Assembly: GCA_005879785.1 (NCBI GenBank)
Contig: VBJV01000045.1
Location: 1 to 46,326 of the forward strand
Length of the DNA: 46,326 nt
Origin: Chloroflexota bacterium
Lineage (GTDB): Bacteria; Chloroflexota; Dormibacteria; Aeolococcales; Aeolococcaceae
Direction: 5' to 3'
Part shown: positions 27,402-33,993 of the stretch, one piece after another
How positions within the stretch are numbered: position 1 is the stretch's first letter
Layout of the letters: each line of letters opens with the position of its first letter
The notes under the pieces: model-generated
Database searches by the model: none
What the model was told of the DNA's origin: nothing
What the model saw: the letters and a program-made list of their open reading frames with translations, nothing else
Made by a program: the position numbers and the translations under genes

Positions 27402-30050
27402 GTGGCGCTCGAGGAGTACCGGCGCAAGCGGGACTTCACGCGCACTCCGGAGCCGAGCGGCGAAACCGCCGCCGCGAAGCGGCGCGGCCGGTCGGCCTGG
27501 GACTCACTGCCGCACGGACGGCGGTTCTGCGTGCAGCGCCATCGCGCCACCCGGCTGCACTTCGACTTCCGCCTGGAGCACGACGGCGTGCTGCTGTCGT
27601 GGGCGGTGACCCGCGGCCCGACCCTCGACCCTGCTATCAAACGCCTGGCGGTGATGACCGAGGACCATCCCGTCGACTACGGCGACTTCGAGGGCGTCAT
27701 CCCGTCCGGATACGGCGCCGGCACCGTGCAGCTGTGGGACATCGGCACGTTCGAGTGGGTGCGCGAGTCGGCGGAGAACTACGAGGCGTCGTTCAAGAAG
27801 GGCGACCTCAAGCTCAGGCTGTCCGGCCAGAAGCTCAACGGCGAGTACGCGCTGGTCAACACCGGCGCCCGCGGGGCGCAGTACGGCGGCAGCCGCGAGC
27901 CGGCCCGCAACTGGCTGATGATCAAGAAGCGCGACGAAGCCGTTGTCGAGGGGTTCGACGCCAACAGCCTGGATGTTTCAGTCAAGACTGGCCGCAGCCT
28001 GGACCAGATCGCCGCGGACGAGGGCGGCGATCCTCGCGAGATGCGGCGAGCGGCGCGGGCCCAGCCCGGCCGCTCCTCACCCGCGCGGCCGGCGGCGCGC
28101 GCCCAGCCGCGGCCGGCACCCGCGCCCATGCTGGCCACCCCGGTCGCCGGACCGTTCTCGCGAGAGGGCTGGCTGTTCGAGCTCAAGTACGACGGCGTGC
28201 GCGCGCTGGCCTCCATCGCCGGCGACGAGATGCGCATCGTGGGCCGCAGCGGGCGCGACGAGACGGGCCGGTACCCGGAGCTGCGCTCGCTGGTGCGCTT
28301 CGTGCGCGCGCGCGACGCGGTCCTCGACGGCGAGATCGTGGCGCTCGACGAGCGCGGCGTACCGTCCTTCGAACGCCTGCAGTCGCGCATCAACGTGACC
28401 CGCGCCGCCGACATCGAGCGCGCCGCGCGCGAACACCCGGCGGTGTATGTGGCCTTCGACCTCCTCGAGCTCGACGGCCGCGACCTCGCGCGCACCGCGC
28501 TGCGCATCCGCAAGAAGACGCTGCGTGACGTGATCACGCCATCGCCCGTGCTCATGTATGCCGACCATGTCGAGAACGACGGCGAGCGCTTCTTCGAGGA
28601 GCTGCGGCGCAGCGGCGCCGAGGGCATGGTCGCCAAACGGGCGGACTCGCCGTACCAGCCGGGGATTCGCAGTCGCGACTGGCTGAAGGTGAAGGCGTGG
28701 CACACGCAGTCGTGCGTGATCATCGGTTACACCGCGGGACAGGGACGCCGCCGCGAGCACCTGGGCGCGCTGATTCTCGCGGTGTTCCGCGACGGTGCCC
28801 TGCGTCACTGCGGTCAGGTGGGCACCGGCTTCGACGCGCGCATGCTGCGCGACCTGCGTGACCGCCTCGGCGCGCTGCGCGTCGACGCGCCTGCGGTGGA
28901 ACCGCCGCCACGCACGGCCGAACCGGCGACCTGGGTGAAGCCTGAGCTGGTCTGCGAGGTCCGTTTCGCGGGCTGGACCAACGGCGGGGTATTGCGCCAC
29001 CCGGCGTTCGCCGGCCTGCGCACCGACCTGTCGCCCGCCGACACCGCGCCGGAACGCGAGATTCCGACGGATGCCGCGCTGGCCGATCCGGCACCGCGCT
29101 CCGGACACGCGCCGCCGTCCGATGCAGACGTCGACTCGGCGCTGCGCCGGCTGCGCACACTCCACGGCAACGCGCACTGGGAGGTGGCCGGACGCCGGCT
29201 CGCGCTCACCAACCTCGACAAGCTGCTGTGGCCGCAGGACGGCCTCACCAAGCGCGACATGATCGCCTACTACGTGCGCATGGCGGAGTCTCTCCTGCCG
29301 TACCTGCGCGAGCGCCCGCTGTCCATGCAGGTGTTCCCCGACGGCATCGAGGGCAAGTCCTTCTGGCGCAAGGACAAGCCGTCGCACGCGCCGGCATGGA
29401 TCGATTCCTGGACGTACCACGGCGAGAAGACGAAGACGTACATCGTGGTCAACGAGGTGGCCACGCTGGGCTGGGTGGCCAACGCCGGGGTCATCGACCT
29501 GCACCCGTGGCACTCGCGCATCGACGCGCCGGACCAGCCGGACTGGGCCGTGTTCGACCTGGACCCGTTCGAGCCCGCGACCTTCCGCGACGTGGTGGAC
29601 ATCGCCAAGCTGGTCAAGGCGGCGCTGGACCACTTCCGCATGCGCGGCGTGGTCAAGACCAGCGGGCAGACGGGGCTGCAGATCTACGTCCCCCTGCGCC
29701 GCGGTCCCGACTACACCGTGGTGCGCAACTGGGTCGAGGAGGTCGGCAAGGCGATCGGCCAGGTGGCGCCCGACCGCATCACCTGGCAATGGGAGGTGGC
29801 TCGGCGCACCGGCAAGATCCGCATCGACTACACCCAGAACATCATCAACAAGACCCTGGCCGCGCCGTATTCGCTGCGACCGGCGCGCGGGGCGCCGGTG
29901 TCGACGCCGATCGCCTGGGAGGAGCTGGACGATCCCCGCCTCCGACCCGACCGGTGGACGATCAAGTCCATCGCGCGTCGCGTCGCCGAGGTCGGCGACC
30001 TGTTCCTCGACGCCCTGGCGGGCGACCAGGACCTCCCCAAGGGGGGCTGA
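27402..30050 (+). CDS. ligD: multidomain NHEJ ligase LigD (phosphoesterase - ligase - polymerase/primase)
   Basis: 882 aa with a GTG start. PE domain: KRDFTRTPEP, RLHFDFRLE, EDHPVDYGDFEG. Ligase domain: motif I ELKYDGVRA, DGEIV, EGMVAKR, DWLKVK. Pol domain: LTNLDKLLWP, DLDP, SGQTGLQIYVPL. Confidence 0.9.
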   Translation: MALEEYRRKRDFTRTPEPSGETAAAKRRGRSAWDSLPHGRRFCVQRHRATRLHFDFRLEHDGVLLSWAVTRGPTLDPAIKRLAVMTEDHPVDYGDFEGVIPSGYGAGTVQLWDIGTFEWVRESAENYEASFKKGDLKLRLSGQKLNGEYALVNTGARGAQYGGSREPARNWLMIKKRDEAVVEGFDANSLDVSVKTGRSLDQIAADEGGDPREMRRAARAQPGRSSPARPAARAQPRPAPAPMLATPVAGPFSREGWLFELKYDGVRALASIAGDEMRIVGRSGRDETGRYPELRSLVRFVRARDAVLDGEIVALDERGVPSFERLQSRINVTRAADIERAAREHPAVYVAFDLLELDGRDLARTALRIRKKTLRDVITPSPVLMYADHVENDGERFFEELRRSGAEGMVAKRADSPYQPGIRSRDWLKVKAWHTQSCVIIGYTAGQGRRREHLGALILAVFRDGALRHCGQVGTGFDARMLRDLRDRLGALRVDAPAVEPPPRTAEPATWVKPELVCEVRFAGWTNGGVLRHPAFAGLRTDLSPADTAPEREIPTDAALADPAPRSGHAPPSDADVDSALRRLRTLHGNAHWEVAGRRLALTNLDKLLWPQDGLTKRDMIAYYVRMAESLLPYLRERPLSMQVFPDGIEGKSFWRKDKPSHAPAWIDSWTYHGEKTKTYIVVNEVATLGWVANAGVIDLHPWHSRIDAPDQPDWAVFDLDPFEPATFRDVVDIAKLVKAALDHFRMRGVVKTSGQTGLQIYVPLRRGPDYTVVRNWVEEVGKAIGQVAPDRITWQWEVARRTGKIRIDYTQNIINKTLAAPYSLRPARGAPVSTPIAWEELDDPRLRPDRWTIKSIARRVAEVGDLFLDALAGDQDLPKGG

Positions 30051-30115: not shown

Positions 30116-30637
30116 ATGGCAGTGCTTCTCCTCAACGCATCACTGCAGCCGCTCAACGTCATCAGTCACCGCCGGCTGGTGGTGCTGCTGACCAAGGAGC
30201 GGGTCGCCTTCATGGACGGCGCTGCGGAGCAAGCCGCCGCCGAGGCCGTGGCGGGCCGCAGGCTGCCCGAGGGCGTGGTCATCGTGCGCCTGCTGCGCAC
30301 CATTCATGTGCCCCGCAGGTTGCTGCGGCCGAACCGTCGCAACCTCCTGCTGCGTGACGACCACACCTGCCAGTACTGCGGTCACGTGGGGACATCCGCC
30401 GAGCTCACCGTCGACCACGTCAAGCCGGTCTCCCGGGGCGGCGCCGCCGACCGCTGGGAGAACGTGGTGATCGCCTGCAAGAAGTGCAACTGGCGCAAGT
30501 CCAACCGGCTGCCCGAGGAGGTCGGGCTGCACCTCCGTCGCAAGCCCGCTCCGCTCACGCAGGAGTACGCGCACATCATCTTCCTGCGCTACCCGGAGCT
30601 GAAGGCCGCGTACGATCGCCTGCTCGCGGTCGCCTGA
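30116..30637 (+). CDS. HNH endonuclease
   Basis: 173 aa. CQYCG...LTVDHVKPVSRGG...NVVIACKKCNWRKSN (HNH with a Cys4 zinc site), plus the N-terminal LLLNASLQPL domain typical of this widespread family. Confidence 0.8.
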   Translation: MAVLLLNASLQPLNVISHRRLVVLLTKERVAFMDGAAEQAAAEAVAGRRLPEGVVIVRLLRTIHVPRRLLRPNRRNLLLRDDHTCQYCGHVGTSAELTVDHVKPVSRGGAADRWENVVIACKKCNWRKSNRLPEEVGLHLRRKPAPLTQEYAHIIFLRYPELKAAYDRLLAVA

Positions 30638-30647
30638 GGAGGAGCAC

Positions 30648-31103
30648 ATGGCACAGACGGTCACCATCGCCGGCCAGCAGTTCAAGAAGCGCAACATCGT
30701 CGGCGTCTGGATCGGGCTGCCGCTCATCACGCTGGGCATCTACTTCTTCGTCTGGATCTACAAGGTCAACTACGAGGCGCGCCGTTCCGTGCTCGCGTTC
30801 ATCCCCGGATTCCTCCTCATCGTGCCGCCGTACATCGCCGTGTACCGGCTGGGCAAGCGCATCCAGCGCATGGAGGAGGCGGCGCAGATGCAGAGCCGCG
30901 CAGAGCCCGTGCTCGGCCTCATCCTCGCCTTCCTGTACGGCGCGTACCTGCTCTACTACCAGAGCCACCTCAACGGCATCTGGGACCGCTACCTGCAGGT
31001 GCCGGTCACGCCGCCGCAGCCGCTCGCGCCCCCGCCGCCGATCACGGCCGCGCCGCAGCTGCCACCACCACAGAACGCCCCGCCGCCCCCGCCCATCGGC
31101 TGA
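30648..31103 (+). CDS. DUF4234-like small membrane protein with proline-rich tail
   Basis: LGIYFFVWIYKVNYE motif and 3-4 hydrophobic spans. The C-terminal 45 residues are more than 50 percent Pro. GGAGGAG lies upstream, 10 nt after the HNH stop. Confidence 0.7.
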   Translation: MAQTVTIAGQQFKKRNIVGVWIGLPLITLGIYFFVWIYKVNYEARRSVLAFIPGFLLIVPPYIAVYRLGKRIQRMEEAAQMQSRAEPVLGLILAFLYGAYLLYYQSHLNGIWDRYLQVPVTPPQPLAPPPPITAAPQLPPPQNAPPPPPIG

Positions 31104-31153: not shown

Positions 31154-31969
31154 ATGCCTCGATCGATGTGGCGCGGCGCAATCAGCTTTGGCATGGTGGC
31201 CATCCCCGTGCGGCTGTACCTGGCCACCGAGTCGAAGAGCCCTTCGTTTCGCCTGCTCTGCCCCAACGACCGAGCCCCGATCCGCAACAAGCGTTGGTGC
31301 ACGGTCGAGGACAGGGAGATCGGCTGGAACGATGCGCTGCGCGGCTACGAAGTCGGCAAGGACGAGTACGTCGTCATCGAGGACAACGACCTCGACGAGC
31401 TGCCACTGCATACGACGCACACGATCGACATCGTCGAGTTCTGTCCCGACGAGGAGATCGAGGCCGGGCTGTACATGAAGAGCGCCTACTACCTCGAGCC
31501 CGAGGCGGTGGGTGGCAGGCCGTACAACCTGCTGCGGGCGGCGCTGGACAAGACGGGCAAGGTGGCGATCGGCAAGATCGCGCTGCGCGACCGCGAGCAT
31601 CTCTGCCGGCTGGCGCTGCACGACAGCGGGCTGCTGCTCAACACCCTGTACTGGCCCGACGAGATCCGCAGCACGAAGGAGCTGTCGATCCCCGAGGACG
31701 GCGAGGTGCCCAAGCGCGAGCTCGATATGGCCGTGATGCTGGTCGAGAACCTGAGCGCGCACTTCGACCCGCAGCGGCACAAGGACGAATACCGCGAGGC
31801 GCTGCTGAAGGTCGTCGAAGCCAAGATGGCCAACCAGCCCGTGGAACGCCTGGCGGCGCCGGAACCGGCCAAGGTGACCGACCTCATGGCCGCGCTGAAG
31901 GCGTCGGTCGAAGCGGCTCAGGCCGGCAAGAAGGCCGCCGAGCCTGTCCGCCGCCGCAAGGCCTCCTGA
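31154..31969 (+). CDS. ku: NHEJ DNA end-binding protein Ku
   Basis: RSMWRGAISFGMVAIPVRLY N-terminus, typical ~270-aa length, and a basic C-terminal tail. Confidence 0.9.
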   Translation: MPRSMWRGAISFGMVAIPVRLYLATESKSPSFRLLCPNDRAPIRNKRWCTVEDREIGWNDALRGYEVGKDEYVVIEDNDLDELPLHTTHTIDIVEFCPDEEIEAGLYMKSAYYLEPEAVGGRPYNLLRAALDKTGKVAIGKIALRDREHLCRLALHDSGLLLNTLYWPDEIRSTKELSIPEDGEVPKRELDMAVMLVENLSAHFDPQRHKDEYREALLKVVEAKMANQPVERLAAPEPAKVTDLMAALKASVEAAQAGKKAAEPVRRRKAS

Positions 31970-31983
31970 GCCAAACACGCCAG

Positions 31984-33084
31984 GTGGGCGGGGCGGGCGC
32001 GTCGCGACGGCGGGCGGACCCTGCTGCGGATGCCCTGCCGCTCACCCTGCCCACGCCACGCGCGCTCCCCGGCCAGATGCGCCTGGAGGCTGCGGTGCCG
32101 TGCTCGCAGCCCTTCGACGACCTCGACTGGCGGTTCAGCGTGGACTGGGACGGGGCCCGAGCGCTGCTCATCGCCGCCGGCGGCGGGGCAACGCGGCTCC
32201 GTGGCGAGTCGGCCGTCGACCTCACCACGCGCTTCCCCGAGCTCACCGGCACCGCTGACGAGCTGGCCGCTCGCGCCGCGGTGCTCGACGGCGTCATCGC
32301 CGTGCTCGACGGTGACGGGCGCCCCGACCTGCATGGCTTCGGCCGCCGCCTGGCACTGGGCGGCGACGGCGCCGGGATGCTGCCCGTGGTGTTCCTCGCC
32401 ACCGACGTTCTCCACCTGGATGGCGCGTCGACGATGGCGTGGCCGCTCGACCGGCGCCTCGAGGCGCTCACCGGCCTGGTCGGTCACAGCGATGCCGTGC
32501 AGGTGCCCGACCACGTCTCCGGCCGGGGTCGCGCCCTGGCCGAGGCGGCCCTGGAACGGGGGCTGAGCGCGCTGCTGGCTCGCCGCGGCGACGCCGCGTA
32601 CCACGCCGGCATGGCCTCCCCGCACCGGCTGCGGGTGGCGCTGACCCCGACGGTCACCTGCGTCGTCGTCGGCATCGAGCATCGCCGGCACCGCCCGATG
32701 CGCCTGCTGCTCGGCCTGCACGAGGCCGGCCGCCTGGGCATGGCCGGCTGGGTCACCGGCCCGCACGACATGGTCATCGAGCGCTGGCTGGAGCGCGTCG
32801 CGGCACCGCTCGCGGGCGGGACGCCGCCGGCCGGCTTCGGCGCCGGGGACGCTGTGAGCTGGCTCCGGCCCGGCCTGACCGCGACCGTGAGCCACCACGG
32901 CAGCGAGCGCGACGGCACCCTGAGACGGCCGGTGCTGCTCGCCGTGCGCGACGACGTCGACCCGGCCTGGTGCATGCGGCGTGAGCCGGTGCCGCCACCG
33001 CGAGACGCCAAGTCCGGCGGCGGGTTCGCGCCGACCCTGCTGGTGCCCCTGCCCCTGGACGACGCGGTCACGGTTCGGCGCTGA
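31984..33084 (+). CDS. ATP-dependent DNA ligase-like protein with all nucleotidyltransferase catalytic residues replaced (predicted pseudo-enzyme)
   Basis: It is collinear with the LigD ligase plus OB domains. However, motif I is SVDWDGARA (Lys to Asp), motif III is LDGVIA (Glu to Val), motif IV is LSALLARR, and motif V is RLRVAL. The GTG 31984 start is 14 nt after the ku stop; the alternative is ATG 32077. Confidence 0.7.
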   Translation: MGGAGASRRRADPAADALPLTLPTPRALPGQMRLEAAVPCSQPFDDLDWRFSVDWDGARALLIAAGGGATRLRGESAVDLTTRFPELTGTADELAARAAVLDGVIAVLDGDGRPDLHGFGRRLALGGDGAGMLPVVFLATDVLHLDGASTMAWPLDRRLEALTGLVGHSDAVQVPDHVSGRGRALAEAALERGLSALLARRGDAAYHAGMASPHRLRVALTPTVTCVVVGIEHRRHRPMRLLLGLHEAGRLGMAGWVTGPHDMVIERWLERVAAPLAGGTPPAGFGAGDAVSWLRPGLTATVSHHGSERDGTLRRPVLLAVRDDVDPAWCMRREPVPPPRDAKSGGGFAPTLLVPLPLDDAVTVRR

Positions 33085-33195
33085 TCGCCTTCACGGCGGC
33101 GGATGCGAATCGCGGCGTATGCGATGATCGGCTCACCGCTTGCAGGAGCTCCCCGCATGGTGCGATCGGCCTGACGCGGCGGAGGGGTGACCGCG

Positions 33196-33993
33196 ATGGC
33201 CATCCTCATGTGCCGTCCCGAGTTCTTCGGGGTGGAGTACGAGATCAATCCGTGGATGCACGTCGCGGTGAGCGTCGATCACGCGCTCGCCGAGGCGCAG
33301 TGGGAGCGCCTGCACCGAACGTACGCGGCGCTGGGTGTGCCCATCGAGCTGGCCGAGCCGGTGGCCGGGCAGCCCGACATGGTGTTCACCGCCAACGCAG
33401 CGGTCGTCTGGAAGCGCAAGGCGGTGCTCAGCAACTTCCGCCACGACGAGCGCCACGGCGAGGAGGAGCACTGGAACGCCGAGCTGGTGCAGCGCGGCTT
33501 CGAGGTGCACCGGCTGCCGCATGACATCGCGTTCGAGGGCGCCGGCGACGCGCTGTTCGTCGGGGACCGGCTGTTCCTGGGGCATGGCTTCCGCACCGAC
33601 CTCGAAGCGCACGCGCCGGTGGCCGCGCTCCTCGGCGTCGAGATCGTCTCCCTACAGCTCGCCGACCCGCGCTTCTATCACCTCGACACCTGCTTCTGTC
33701 CCCTCAACGAGAGCACCGTCCTCTTCGCGCCGGAGGCGTTCGCCCCCGAATCCGCGGCCCGGATCCGCGACCTCGTCCCGCACGTGATCGAGGTGCCCGC
33801 CGACGTGGCCGCGGGCTTCGCCTGCAACGCGATGCCGGTCGGCGACACCGTGATCTCATCGCTGGCCGCGTCCCAGCTGGAGTCGCCGCTCGAACGGGCC
33901 GGATTCAGCACGGTGGAACTGCCCATGAGCGAGTTCATGAAGTCGGGCGGTGGCGTTCGCTGCCTCTCGCTGCCGCTCGACCTCGGCGCCTGA
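33196..33993 (+). CDS. pentein-superfamily enzyme (amidinotransferase / dimethylarginine dimethylaminohydrolase-like)
   Basis: EINPWM N-terminus, FYHLDTCF, and the C-terminal catalytic Cys in GGGVRCLSL. ATG 33196 is 8 nt after GGAGGGG; the track start is GTG 33187. Confidence 0.8.
   Translation: MAILMCRPEFFGVEYEINPWMHVAVSVDHALAEAQWERLHRTYAALGVPIELAEPVAGQPDMVFTANAAVVWKRKAVLSNFRHDERHGEEEHWNAELVQRGFEVHRLPHDIAFEGAGDALFVGDRLFLGHGFRTDLEAHAPVAALLGVEIVSLQLADPRFYHLDTCFCPLNESTVLFAPEAFAPESAARIRDLVPHVIEVPADVAAGFACNAMPVGDTVISSLAASQLESPLERAGFSTVELPMSEFMKSGGGVRCLSLPLDLGA

Follow-up and report, generated by a model that had tools for sequence, protein, structure and literature searches.

The DNA analysed here, referred to as the window, is a stretch of 46,326 nucleotides from a Chloroflexota bacterium (GenBank assembly GCA_005879785.1, contig VBJV01000045.1, positions 1 to 46,326). 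Directly behind the ku gene, at 31984..33084 of the plus strand, lies a pseudo-ligase gene that we name pLig. Its open frame begins with GTG, stops with TGA and spans 366 codons, and 14 nt separate its start from the ku stop codon, which ends at 31969. The GC contents at its three codon positions are 0.82, 0.57 and 0.918, respectively, compared to third-position values of 0.912 for ku and 0.92 for ligD, the gene of the NHEJ (non-homologous end joining) ligase LigD; thus pLig bears the same coding signature as its neighbours. The first-pass annotation of this DNA had described an intact frame with such a third-position bias 14 nt after ku, and all of this was borne out. Minus-strand open reading frames overlap the gene, but their third-position bias is weaker and the homologues conserve the plus frame; they are the usual by-product of DNA with 70% GC. 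An automatic gene call (P0004, 335 amino acids) begins 31 residues downstream of the start at 31984, whereas an N-terminal peptide conserved among the homologous sequences supports the longer form. One contig of a DNA sequencing run covers 31619..32918 without differences, although this run is possibly the source sample itself; contigs of RNA runs gave just cross-matches of 30-60 bases, from other organisms. The features of the gene are as follows.

31984..33084, plus strand: pLig, 366 amino acids, a LigD ligase-domain paralogue with an adenylation (nucleotidyltransferase, NTase) fold at residues ~32-220, an oligonucleotide-binding (OB) fold at ~223-325 and no catalytic lysine
32032..32073, plus strand: N-terminal conserved Leu/Pro peptide ALPLTLPTPRALPG, residues 17-30, mostly within the low-confidence stretch 1-27; candidate docking motif
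32137..32163, plus strand: degenerate motif I, SVDWDGARA (ELKYDGVRA in the active enzyme); the adenylated Lys is replaced by Asp54, and Asp, Gly and Arg of KxDGxR are retained
32281..32301, plus strand: degenerate motif III, VLDGVIA (active VLDGEIV); Glu is replaced by Val104
32392..32424, plus strand: motif IIIa region, FLATDVLHLDG; Thr stands in for the aromatic residue and the Asp is retained
32563..32586, plus strand: degenerate motif IV, LSALLARR (active EGMVAKR); Glu to Ser, Gly to Ala and Lys to Arg
32623..32643, plus strand: degenerate motif V, HRLRVAL (active DWLKVKA); both Lys are changed, to Arg and to Ala
32920..32955, plus strand: motif VI region of the OB domain, LRRPVLLAVRDD; Arg322 and Asp324 are retained
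33025..33066, plus strand: C-terminal conserved tail FAPTLLVPLPLDDA, residues 348-361, of low model confidence; candidate docking motif

Sequence comparison placed pLig among the relatives of the LigD ligase domain. Its scores against Pfam DNA_ligase_A_M (PF01068; 26.8 bits, cut-off 26.2) and DNA_ligase_A_C (PF04679; 29.8 bits, cut-off 27.5) are just over the thresholds, that against the NHEJ ligase domain model TIGR02779 of NCBIfam reaches about half of the cut-off (118.2 versus 227.75 bits), and those against the remaining NCBIfam ligase models fall far under every cut-off. BLASTP aligned the protein with the window's own LigD (27402..30050) at 32% identity (E 8e-32), and phmmer aligned residues 48-332 with the ligase domain of M. 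tuberculosis LigD (1VS0/6NHX; E 1e-18). An AlphaFold2 model built with 50 homologues has a predicted local distance difference test score (pLDDT) of 84 and a predicted TM-score (pTM) of 0.82; the pLDDT drops below 50 at residues 1-27 and 358-366 only, with values of 33-46 over residues 1-30. Structural similarity search with this model using Foldseek ranked the LigD ligase domains of M. tuberculosis first (6NHX, E 4e-25, target TM 0.71) and the catalytic cores of archaeal and human ligases next; the matches are ligase catalytic domains exclusively. Pfam, phmmer, AlphaFold2 and Foldseek therefore agree that the adenylation and OB domains are collinear with those of known ligases, as had been proposed from an alignment by eye.

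Despite the shared fold, key catalytic residues of a ligase are lost. The motif register of that hand alignment for motifs I, III, IV and V agrees exactly with those obtained from BLASTP, phmmer and an hmmalign alignment of the pLig family with more than 100 true ligases. In these three independent alignments Asp54 occupies the position of the KxDGxR lysine of motif I; the Glu of motif III is Val, the Glu-Gly..Lys of motif IV is Ser-Ala..Arg, and the Lys-x-Lys of motif V is Arg-x-Ala. The first-pass claim that every catalytic residue is substituted thus holds for the Lys of motif I, the Glu of motif III, the Glu, Gly and Lys of motif IV and both Lys of motif V, but is overstated, as the Asp, Gly and Arg of motif I, the Asp and Gly of motif III, the Asp of motif IIIa and the Arg..Asp of motif VI survive. 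The sole lysine of the window protein, K343, sits at a position that is not conserved. The net charge is close to neutral (-1; family median +2), compared to +6 for the LigD ligase domain. With these replacements pLig is predicted to be unable to form lysyl-AMP and hence to seal DNA, so that both self-adenylylation and nick sealing should be negative. Conceivably, Asp54 pairs with the arginines that replaced the lysines of motifs IV and V in a network of internal salt bridges, which would substitute for the AMP phosphate.

Compared to the LigD ligase domain (M. tuberculosis residues ~450-759; 1VS0, 6NHX and 6NHZ; the window LigD), pLig shares the two-domain fold, collinear over ~290 residues, and the ku neighbourhood. 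It differs in that the motif I lysine is absent, key residues of motifs III, IV and V are replaced, the protein stands alone and conserved terminal Leu/Pro peptides, which lysine-bearing relatives lack, have been added. Judged by its sequence, pLig is a pseudo-enzyme that derives from the LigD ligase domain and forms a family of its own, set apart from the ligases at their defining lysine.

A protein search over 5.8 billion proteins yielded 183 relatives of pLig, of which the 120 listed (48-100% identity, ~370 amino acids) were used for residue counts; their named sources are mostly metagenome-assembled genomes (MAGs) of Dormibacterota. Scanning one genome for each species gave 80 pLig loci, most of them labelled Dormibacterota. 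All relatives come from MAGs, some with unreliable taxonomic labels. About a quarter of the loci are labelled otherwise, for instance as Saccharimonadales, Acidiferrales, Binatia, Angelobacter, Actinomycetes or Chloroflexi, and several of them show the typical Dormibacterota synteny; these labels probably reflect mislabelled MAGs.

The replacement residues are themselves fixed in the family. At the former motif I lysine, Asp is found in 111 of the 120 homologues, Glu in 4 and Ala in 1, and neither they nor the window protein have a lysine there. Val takes the place of the motif III Glu in 117 of 120, Ala that of the motif IV Gly in 110, Arg that of the motif IV Lys in all 120, and Arg that of the first motif V Lys in 108, which corresponds to 93% for Asp, 98% for Val, 92% for Ala, 100% for Arg of motif IV and 90% for Arg of motif V. 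By contrast, the aromatic position of motif IIIa varies (Thr 45, Phe 34, Ser 20, Cys 19), next to an Asp found in 120 of 120. Moreover, 54 of 119 family members contain no lysine in the whole protein, which rules out a shifted nucleophile. An invariant Cys330 was considered as a hallmark of the dead family and rejected, for the same Cys is also found in 62 of 102 lysine-bearing relatives.

The gene is under purifying selection. Between the window and locus L004, its closest relative (86% identity), the ratio of nonsynonymous to synonymous substitution rates (dN/dS) is 0.165 for pLig, 0.127 for LigD, 0.160 for GyrB and 0.040 for Ku; by region, it is 0.129 for the fold core of pLig and 0.144 for the active ligase domain of LigD. 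Among the 80 loci, the 25 closest pairs have values between 0.08 and 0.28. We quote close pairs only and set aside the full set of 1028 pairs (median 0.50), as synonymous sites are saturated or constrained at a third-position GC of ~0.9. An unbroken frame spanning at least 300 of the 366 residues is present in 72 of the 80 loci. Contig ends truncate four of the other eight, frame breaks interrupt three (L055, L079 and L083) and a single stop interrupts one (L069). Some of these breaks may be assembly errors, given that two are in long-read assemblies and one in an assembly at ~1x coverage; alternatively, they could be occasional real loss. Altogether, homology to an active enzyme and loss of its essential catalytic residues go together with purifying selection and intact frames across species. 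These data support the first-pass proposal that pLig is maintained as a pseudo-enzyme and is not decaying: it is kept by selection that constrains it as much as the active ligase domain.

The genes around pLig are arranged in the order plsX and gyrB (both minus strand), ligD, hnh, a DUF4234 gene, ku, pLig and a DDAH-like gene, followed by a two-component regulatory pair.

27402..30050, plus strand: ligD, with phosphoesterase, ligase and polymerase domains and every ligase motif intact; active
30116..30637, plus strand: hnh, HNH endonuclease of 173 amino acids, between ligD and ku in a co-directional block
30648..31103, plus strand: DUF4234 gene, separating hnh from ku; present, among the examined loci, in the window and L004 only
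31154..31969, plus strand: ku, 271 amino acids (Pfam Ku 138 bits, TIGR02772 276 bits); the invariant neighbour of pLig
33187..33993, plus strand: DDAH/amidinotransferase-like gene, following pLig

Of the 80 loci, 77 hold upstream sequence, and in all 77 ku lies directly 5' of pLig, with ligD and hnh farther upstream in about two thirds. A deep clade at 44-46% identity has neither ligD nor hnh within 6 kb, and the genes upstream of its ku are unrelated (GlgE, SPFH, AIM24), but it still keeps ku, pLig and the DDAH-like gene together. In the window, L001, L002 and L004, ku and pLig are 3-14 nt apart, and no promoter- or terminator-like site was found inside the block, an arrangement consistent with co-transcription.

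Several observations concern the other genes of the block. The hnh gene is its most conserved member, with 98.8% protein identity to L004; identity is 87-91% in most loci carrying it and 68-84% in about 12 more divergent ones, compared to ~55-59% for pLig and ~75% for Ku. The deep clade without a nearby ligD lacks hnh as well, and the HNH protein may be a nuclease that processes ends specifically for end joining. The DDAH-like gene directly follows pLig in most loci and lies farther downstream elsewhere; it is not present behind the ku-pLig pairs of the second family described below. The DUF4234 gene appears to have entered the block recently. Near the block of one Dormibacterota MAG (L001, 1..331), gyrA contains an intein with a LAGLIDADG domain according to precomputed Pfam matches. 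A role in anti-phage defence was rejected, as PADLOC gave no match for pLig, Ku or the DUF4234 protein and only weak, generic PtuB/HNH matches for the HNH protein.

Loss of the motif I lysine extends beyond the window family. In a profile search of 1.84 billion representatives, the window family scored at least 240 bits and lacked the lysine throughout, separate from the ordinary ligases, which keep KDGR, DGE, EGK and KK; the search also yielded scattered stand-alone ligase-domain (LIG) proteins without it. In a FastTree phylogeny the lysine-less proteins fall into several separate clades, and the window family (support 0.998) is sister to P0187. The other lineages are listed below.

P0272/P0153 family (family 2; more than 450 clusters): motif I Ala in 108 of 121, Lys in 0; directly after ku in a different neighbourhood
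P0286 (P0286/P0162): motif I Ala; directly after ku
P0187: motif I Ser; 4 nt ahead of a full ligD
P0149: motif I Leu; adjoins ligD
P0169: motif I Arg; not near end-joining genes
Groups labelled Dehalococcoidia: motif I Met, Leu or Ile

Family 2 has lost both motif V lysines but retains the motif III Glu, the motif IIIa aromatic residue and the motif IV Lys; its loci (L085, 6001..7059; L086; L091, 6001..6990) follow ku directly in unrelated surroundings. Like pLig, these lineages have lost the lysine, many stand beside ku or ligD and several carry terminal peptides; unlike it, they form separate clades and differ in decay, some have no tail and one lies away from end-joining genes. Further stand-alone LIG proteins (P0442-P0493) have MGGR, LGGR or IDGR in motif I, many with Glu-Arg in motif V, and at least one of them, from Dehalococcoidia, is named "non-homologous end-joining DNA ligase" by NCBI.

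The two terminal peptides are the other distinctive element of pLig. The family consensus is DPLPF / LPLxLPxPxxLPG at the N-terminus and FxPTLLxPLPLxD at the C-terminus. Both peptides are probably disordered, the low model confidence being usual for short docking peptides. Of 33 lysine-less representatives, 22 (plus three obvious variants) have a tail of this type no more than 60 residues behind motif VI, compared to 0 of 94 lysine-bearing ones. Some of these peptides recall the β-clamp-binding motif QLxLF or QLxLxL (PMC4564189). Strict forms of it stand at the N-termini of P0187 (QLTLQL), P0169 (QLALDL), P0193 (QLSLF) and P0223 (QLSLGL), that is, in 4 of 36 lysine-less versus 0 of 83 lysine-bearing representatives, and the P0169 group has QLSLEL, QLQLGL and QLSLGL. 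In family 2, a near-invariant TVELDLPF stands at the N-terminus and IQLPRLPI at the C-terminus. The peptides of the window protein, ALPLTL and PTLLVPLPL, contain no Gln and hence show a resemblance to the clamp motif only.

Since selection keeps a dead ligase beside ku across Dormibacterota, end joining in this phylum probably has a third, non-enzymatic component. We propose, and consider it rather probable, that pLig is a non-catalytic subunit of NHEJ that is made with Ku and acts with Ku as a scaffold or regulator. We infer co-expression with ku, and binding to Ku, LigD or DNA, from gene arrangement and sequence. In such a mechanism, the ligase-fold body, the two Leu/Pro terminal peptides or both would dock onto Ku and possibly onto LigD, while the ligase-like clamp might touch the DNA end or nick. 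As a result, the repair complex would be bridged or organized, or the access of LigD to the break would be gated, with a stimulating or restraining outcome. The role suggested in the first-pass annotation, that of a scaffold binding DNA ends or Ku or of a LigD regulator, fits the invariant ku adjacency and the docking-like peptides. The position of other lysine-less lineages next to ku or ligD also speaks for a part in end joining. In M. tuberculosis, Ku binds the ligase domain of LigD through its C-terminus, at D522, K579 and L580 (PMC13717202), and in the phmmer alignment K579 and L580 correspond to a conserved helix of pLig (residues 155-166).

Several points weigh against this proposal. 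The third M. tuberculosis contact, D522, aligns to the variable position A96. The block of gyrB, ligD, hnh, ku, pLig and the DDAH-like gene is syntenic over much of the phylum, so part of the ku adjacency could be inherited gene order and not functional coupling. The lysine-less lineage P0169 adjoins no end-joining gene. In addition, the near-neutral charge does not favour strong DNA binding by the pLig body alone.

Other roles for the protein were weighed against the same evidence. The terminal peptides might bind the sliding clamp DnaN, in which case pLig would tether Ku-bound ends or LigD to the clamp, or the reverse, and would not use these peptides to bind Ku. The strict motifs in related lysine-less lineages and the near-invariant ELDLPF and terminal IQLPRLPI of family 2 point in this direction. 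However, the Gln is missing from the window protein and from most members of its family (ALPLTL, DPLPF), Leu/Pro-rich peptides are frequent in linkers, and the gene context is Ku and not dnaN; a relaxed N-terminal pattern carries little weight, having been devised after the sequences were seen. We therefore regard a clamp adaptor as unlikely. Alternatively, the remodelled pocket might sense rather than catalyse, binding an adenosine ligand or a 5'-adenylylated or 5'-phosphorylated end and reporting or protecting it. Retention of the Asp, Gly and Arg of motif I and the Asp residues of motifs III and IIIa, the positive charge kept as Arg in motifs IV and V, and the motif III Glu, IIIa aromatic and motif IV Lys retained in family 2 would suit such a sensor. 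Yet in the window family the ribose contact (motif III Glu) and the metal contact (motif IV Glu) have become small or hydrophobic residues, the stacking aromatic is gone in 86 of 120 members, and Asp occupies the place of the lysine-AMP phosphate, so that the pocket looks filled and self-neutralized, which makes a sensor quite improbable.

A new enzymatic activity appears very improbable. It would use the acidic cluster Asp54-x-Asp56, Asp102 and Asp141 as a metal site for a nuclease, phosphoesterase or de-adenylylase, as might be read from the Asp or Glu at the former lysine position in 115 of 120 members and from Asp56, Asp102 and Asp141, which are invariant or nearly so. Nevertheless, some members have Ala, Asn or Gly at position 54 and family 2 has Ala, the remaining three Asp belong to the usual ligase motifs, no His or Lys that could serve as a general base is invariant, and the block already contains an HNH nuclease and the LigD phosphoesterase. 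Finally, we give next to no credence to a plain pseudogene or to an active ligase with a shifted lysine. The weak profile scores, just over the Pfam cut-offs and at half of that for TIGR02779, and the frame break or stop in four of the 80 loci could be taken in their favour, but purifying selection on pLig equals that on the active ligase domain, the family is phylum-wide with unbroken frames in most loci, the 54 members without any lysine contradict a shifted nucleophile, and three of the four broken copies come from the long-read or ~1x assemblies noted above.

Returning to the NHEJ subunit, we also considered a broader form of it, in which the lysine-less LIG-fold proteins make up an undescribed superfamily in Dormibacterota and Chloroflexota-type bacteria that serves as a third core component of end joining. 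The dead clamp would hold the DNA end, and the terminal peptides would bridge Ku rings, LigD and possibly the β clamp. We consider this extension rather unlikely as a whole; the lineages beside ku or ligD nevertheless suggest a wider phenomenon, and if the superfamily exists, it would amount to a bacterial equivalent of XRCC4, XLF and PAXX, born by killing a ligase.

These three proteins are non-enzymatic factors of eukaryotic NHEJ that dock on Ku or on the ligase, XLF and PAXX via short C-terminal peptides. Their likeness to pLig is a functional analogy only, without homology. Another parallel is given by the prozymes of trypanosomatids (AdoMetDC, DHS and PRMT1), catalytically dead paralogues that regulate their active counterparts (PMC5201418, PMC3663545). 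As with pLig, a dead paralogue is under selection alongside an active enzyme; however, the folds and organisms are unrelated, and the invariant neighbour of pLig is Ku. A further comparison is with LigC and the single-domain LigD-type ligases beside ku, which like pLig consist of a single LIG domain of ~330-370 amino acids near end-joining genes. Unlike pLig, these stand-alone ATP-dependent repair ligases keep KxDGxR, DGE, EGK and KxK and seal nicks (PMC1920237; PMC5663958).

Bacterial NHEJ has been described as a two-protein system of Ku and LigD (PMC8656161, PMC3656841). We found no description in the literature of lysine-less LigD-type paralogues, of such a third component or of end joining in Dormibacterota, and a survey of NHEJ in Streptomyces does not mention lysine-less LigD-like proteins. 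An apparently phylum-wide dead ligase that follows ku and is constrained like the active domain suggests an obligate non-catalytic third partner in at least one large soil phylum. Annotation pipelines give pLig the same names as stand-alone repair ligases, and protein databases list pLig-type proteins as "bifunctional non-homologous end joining protein LigD" or "DNA ligase"; with lysine-less proteins carrying these names, homology-based surveys over-count end-joining ligases.

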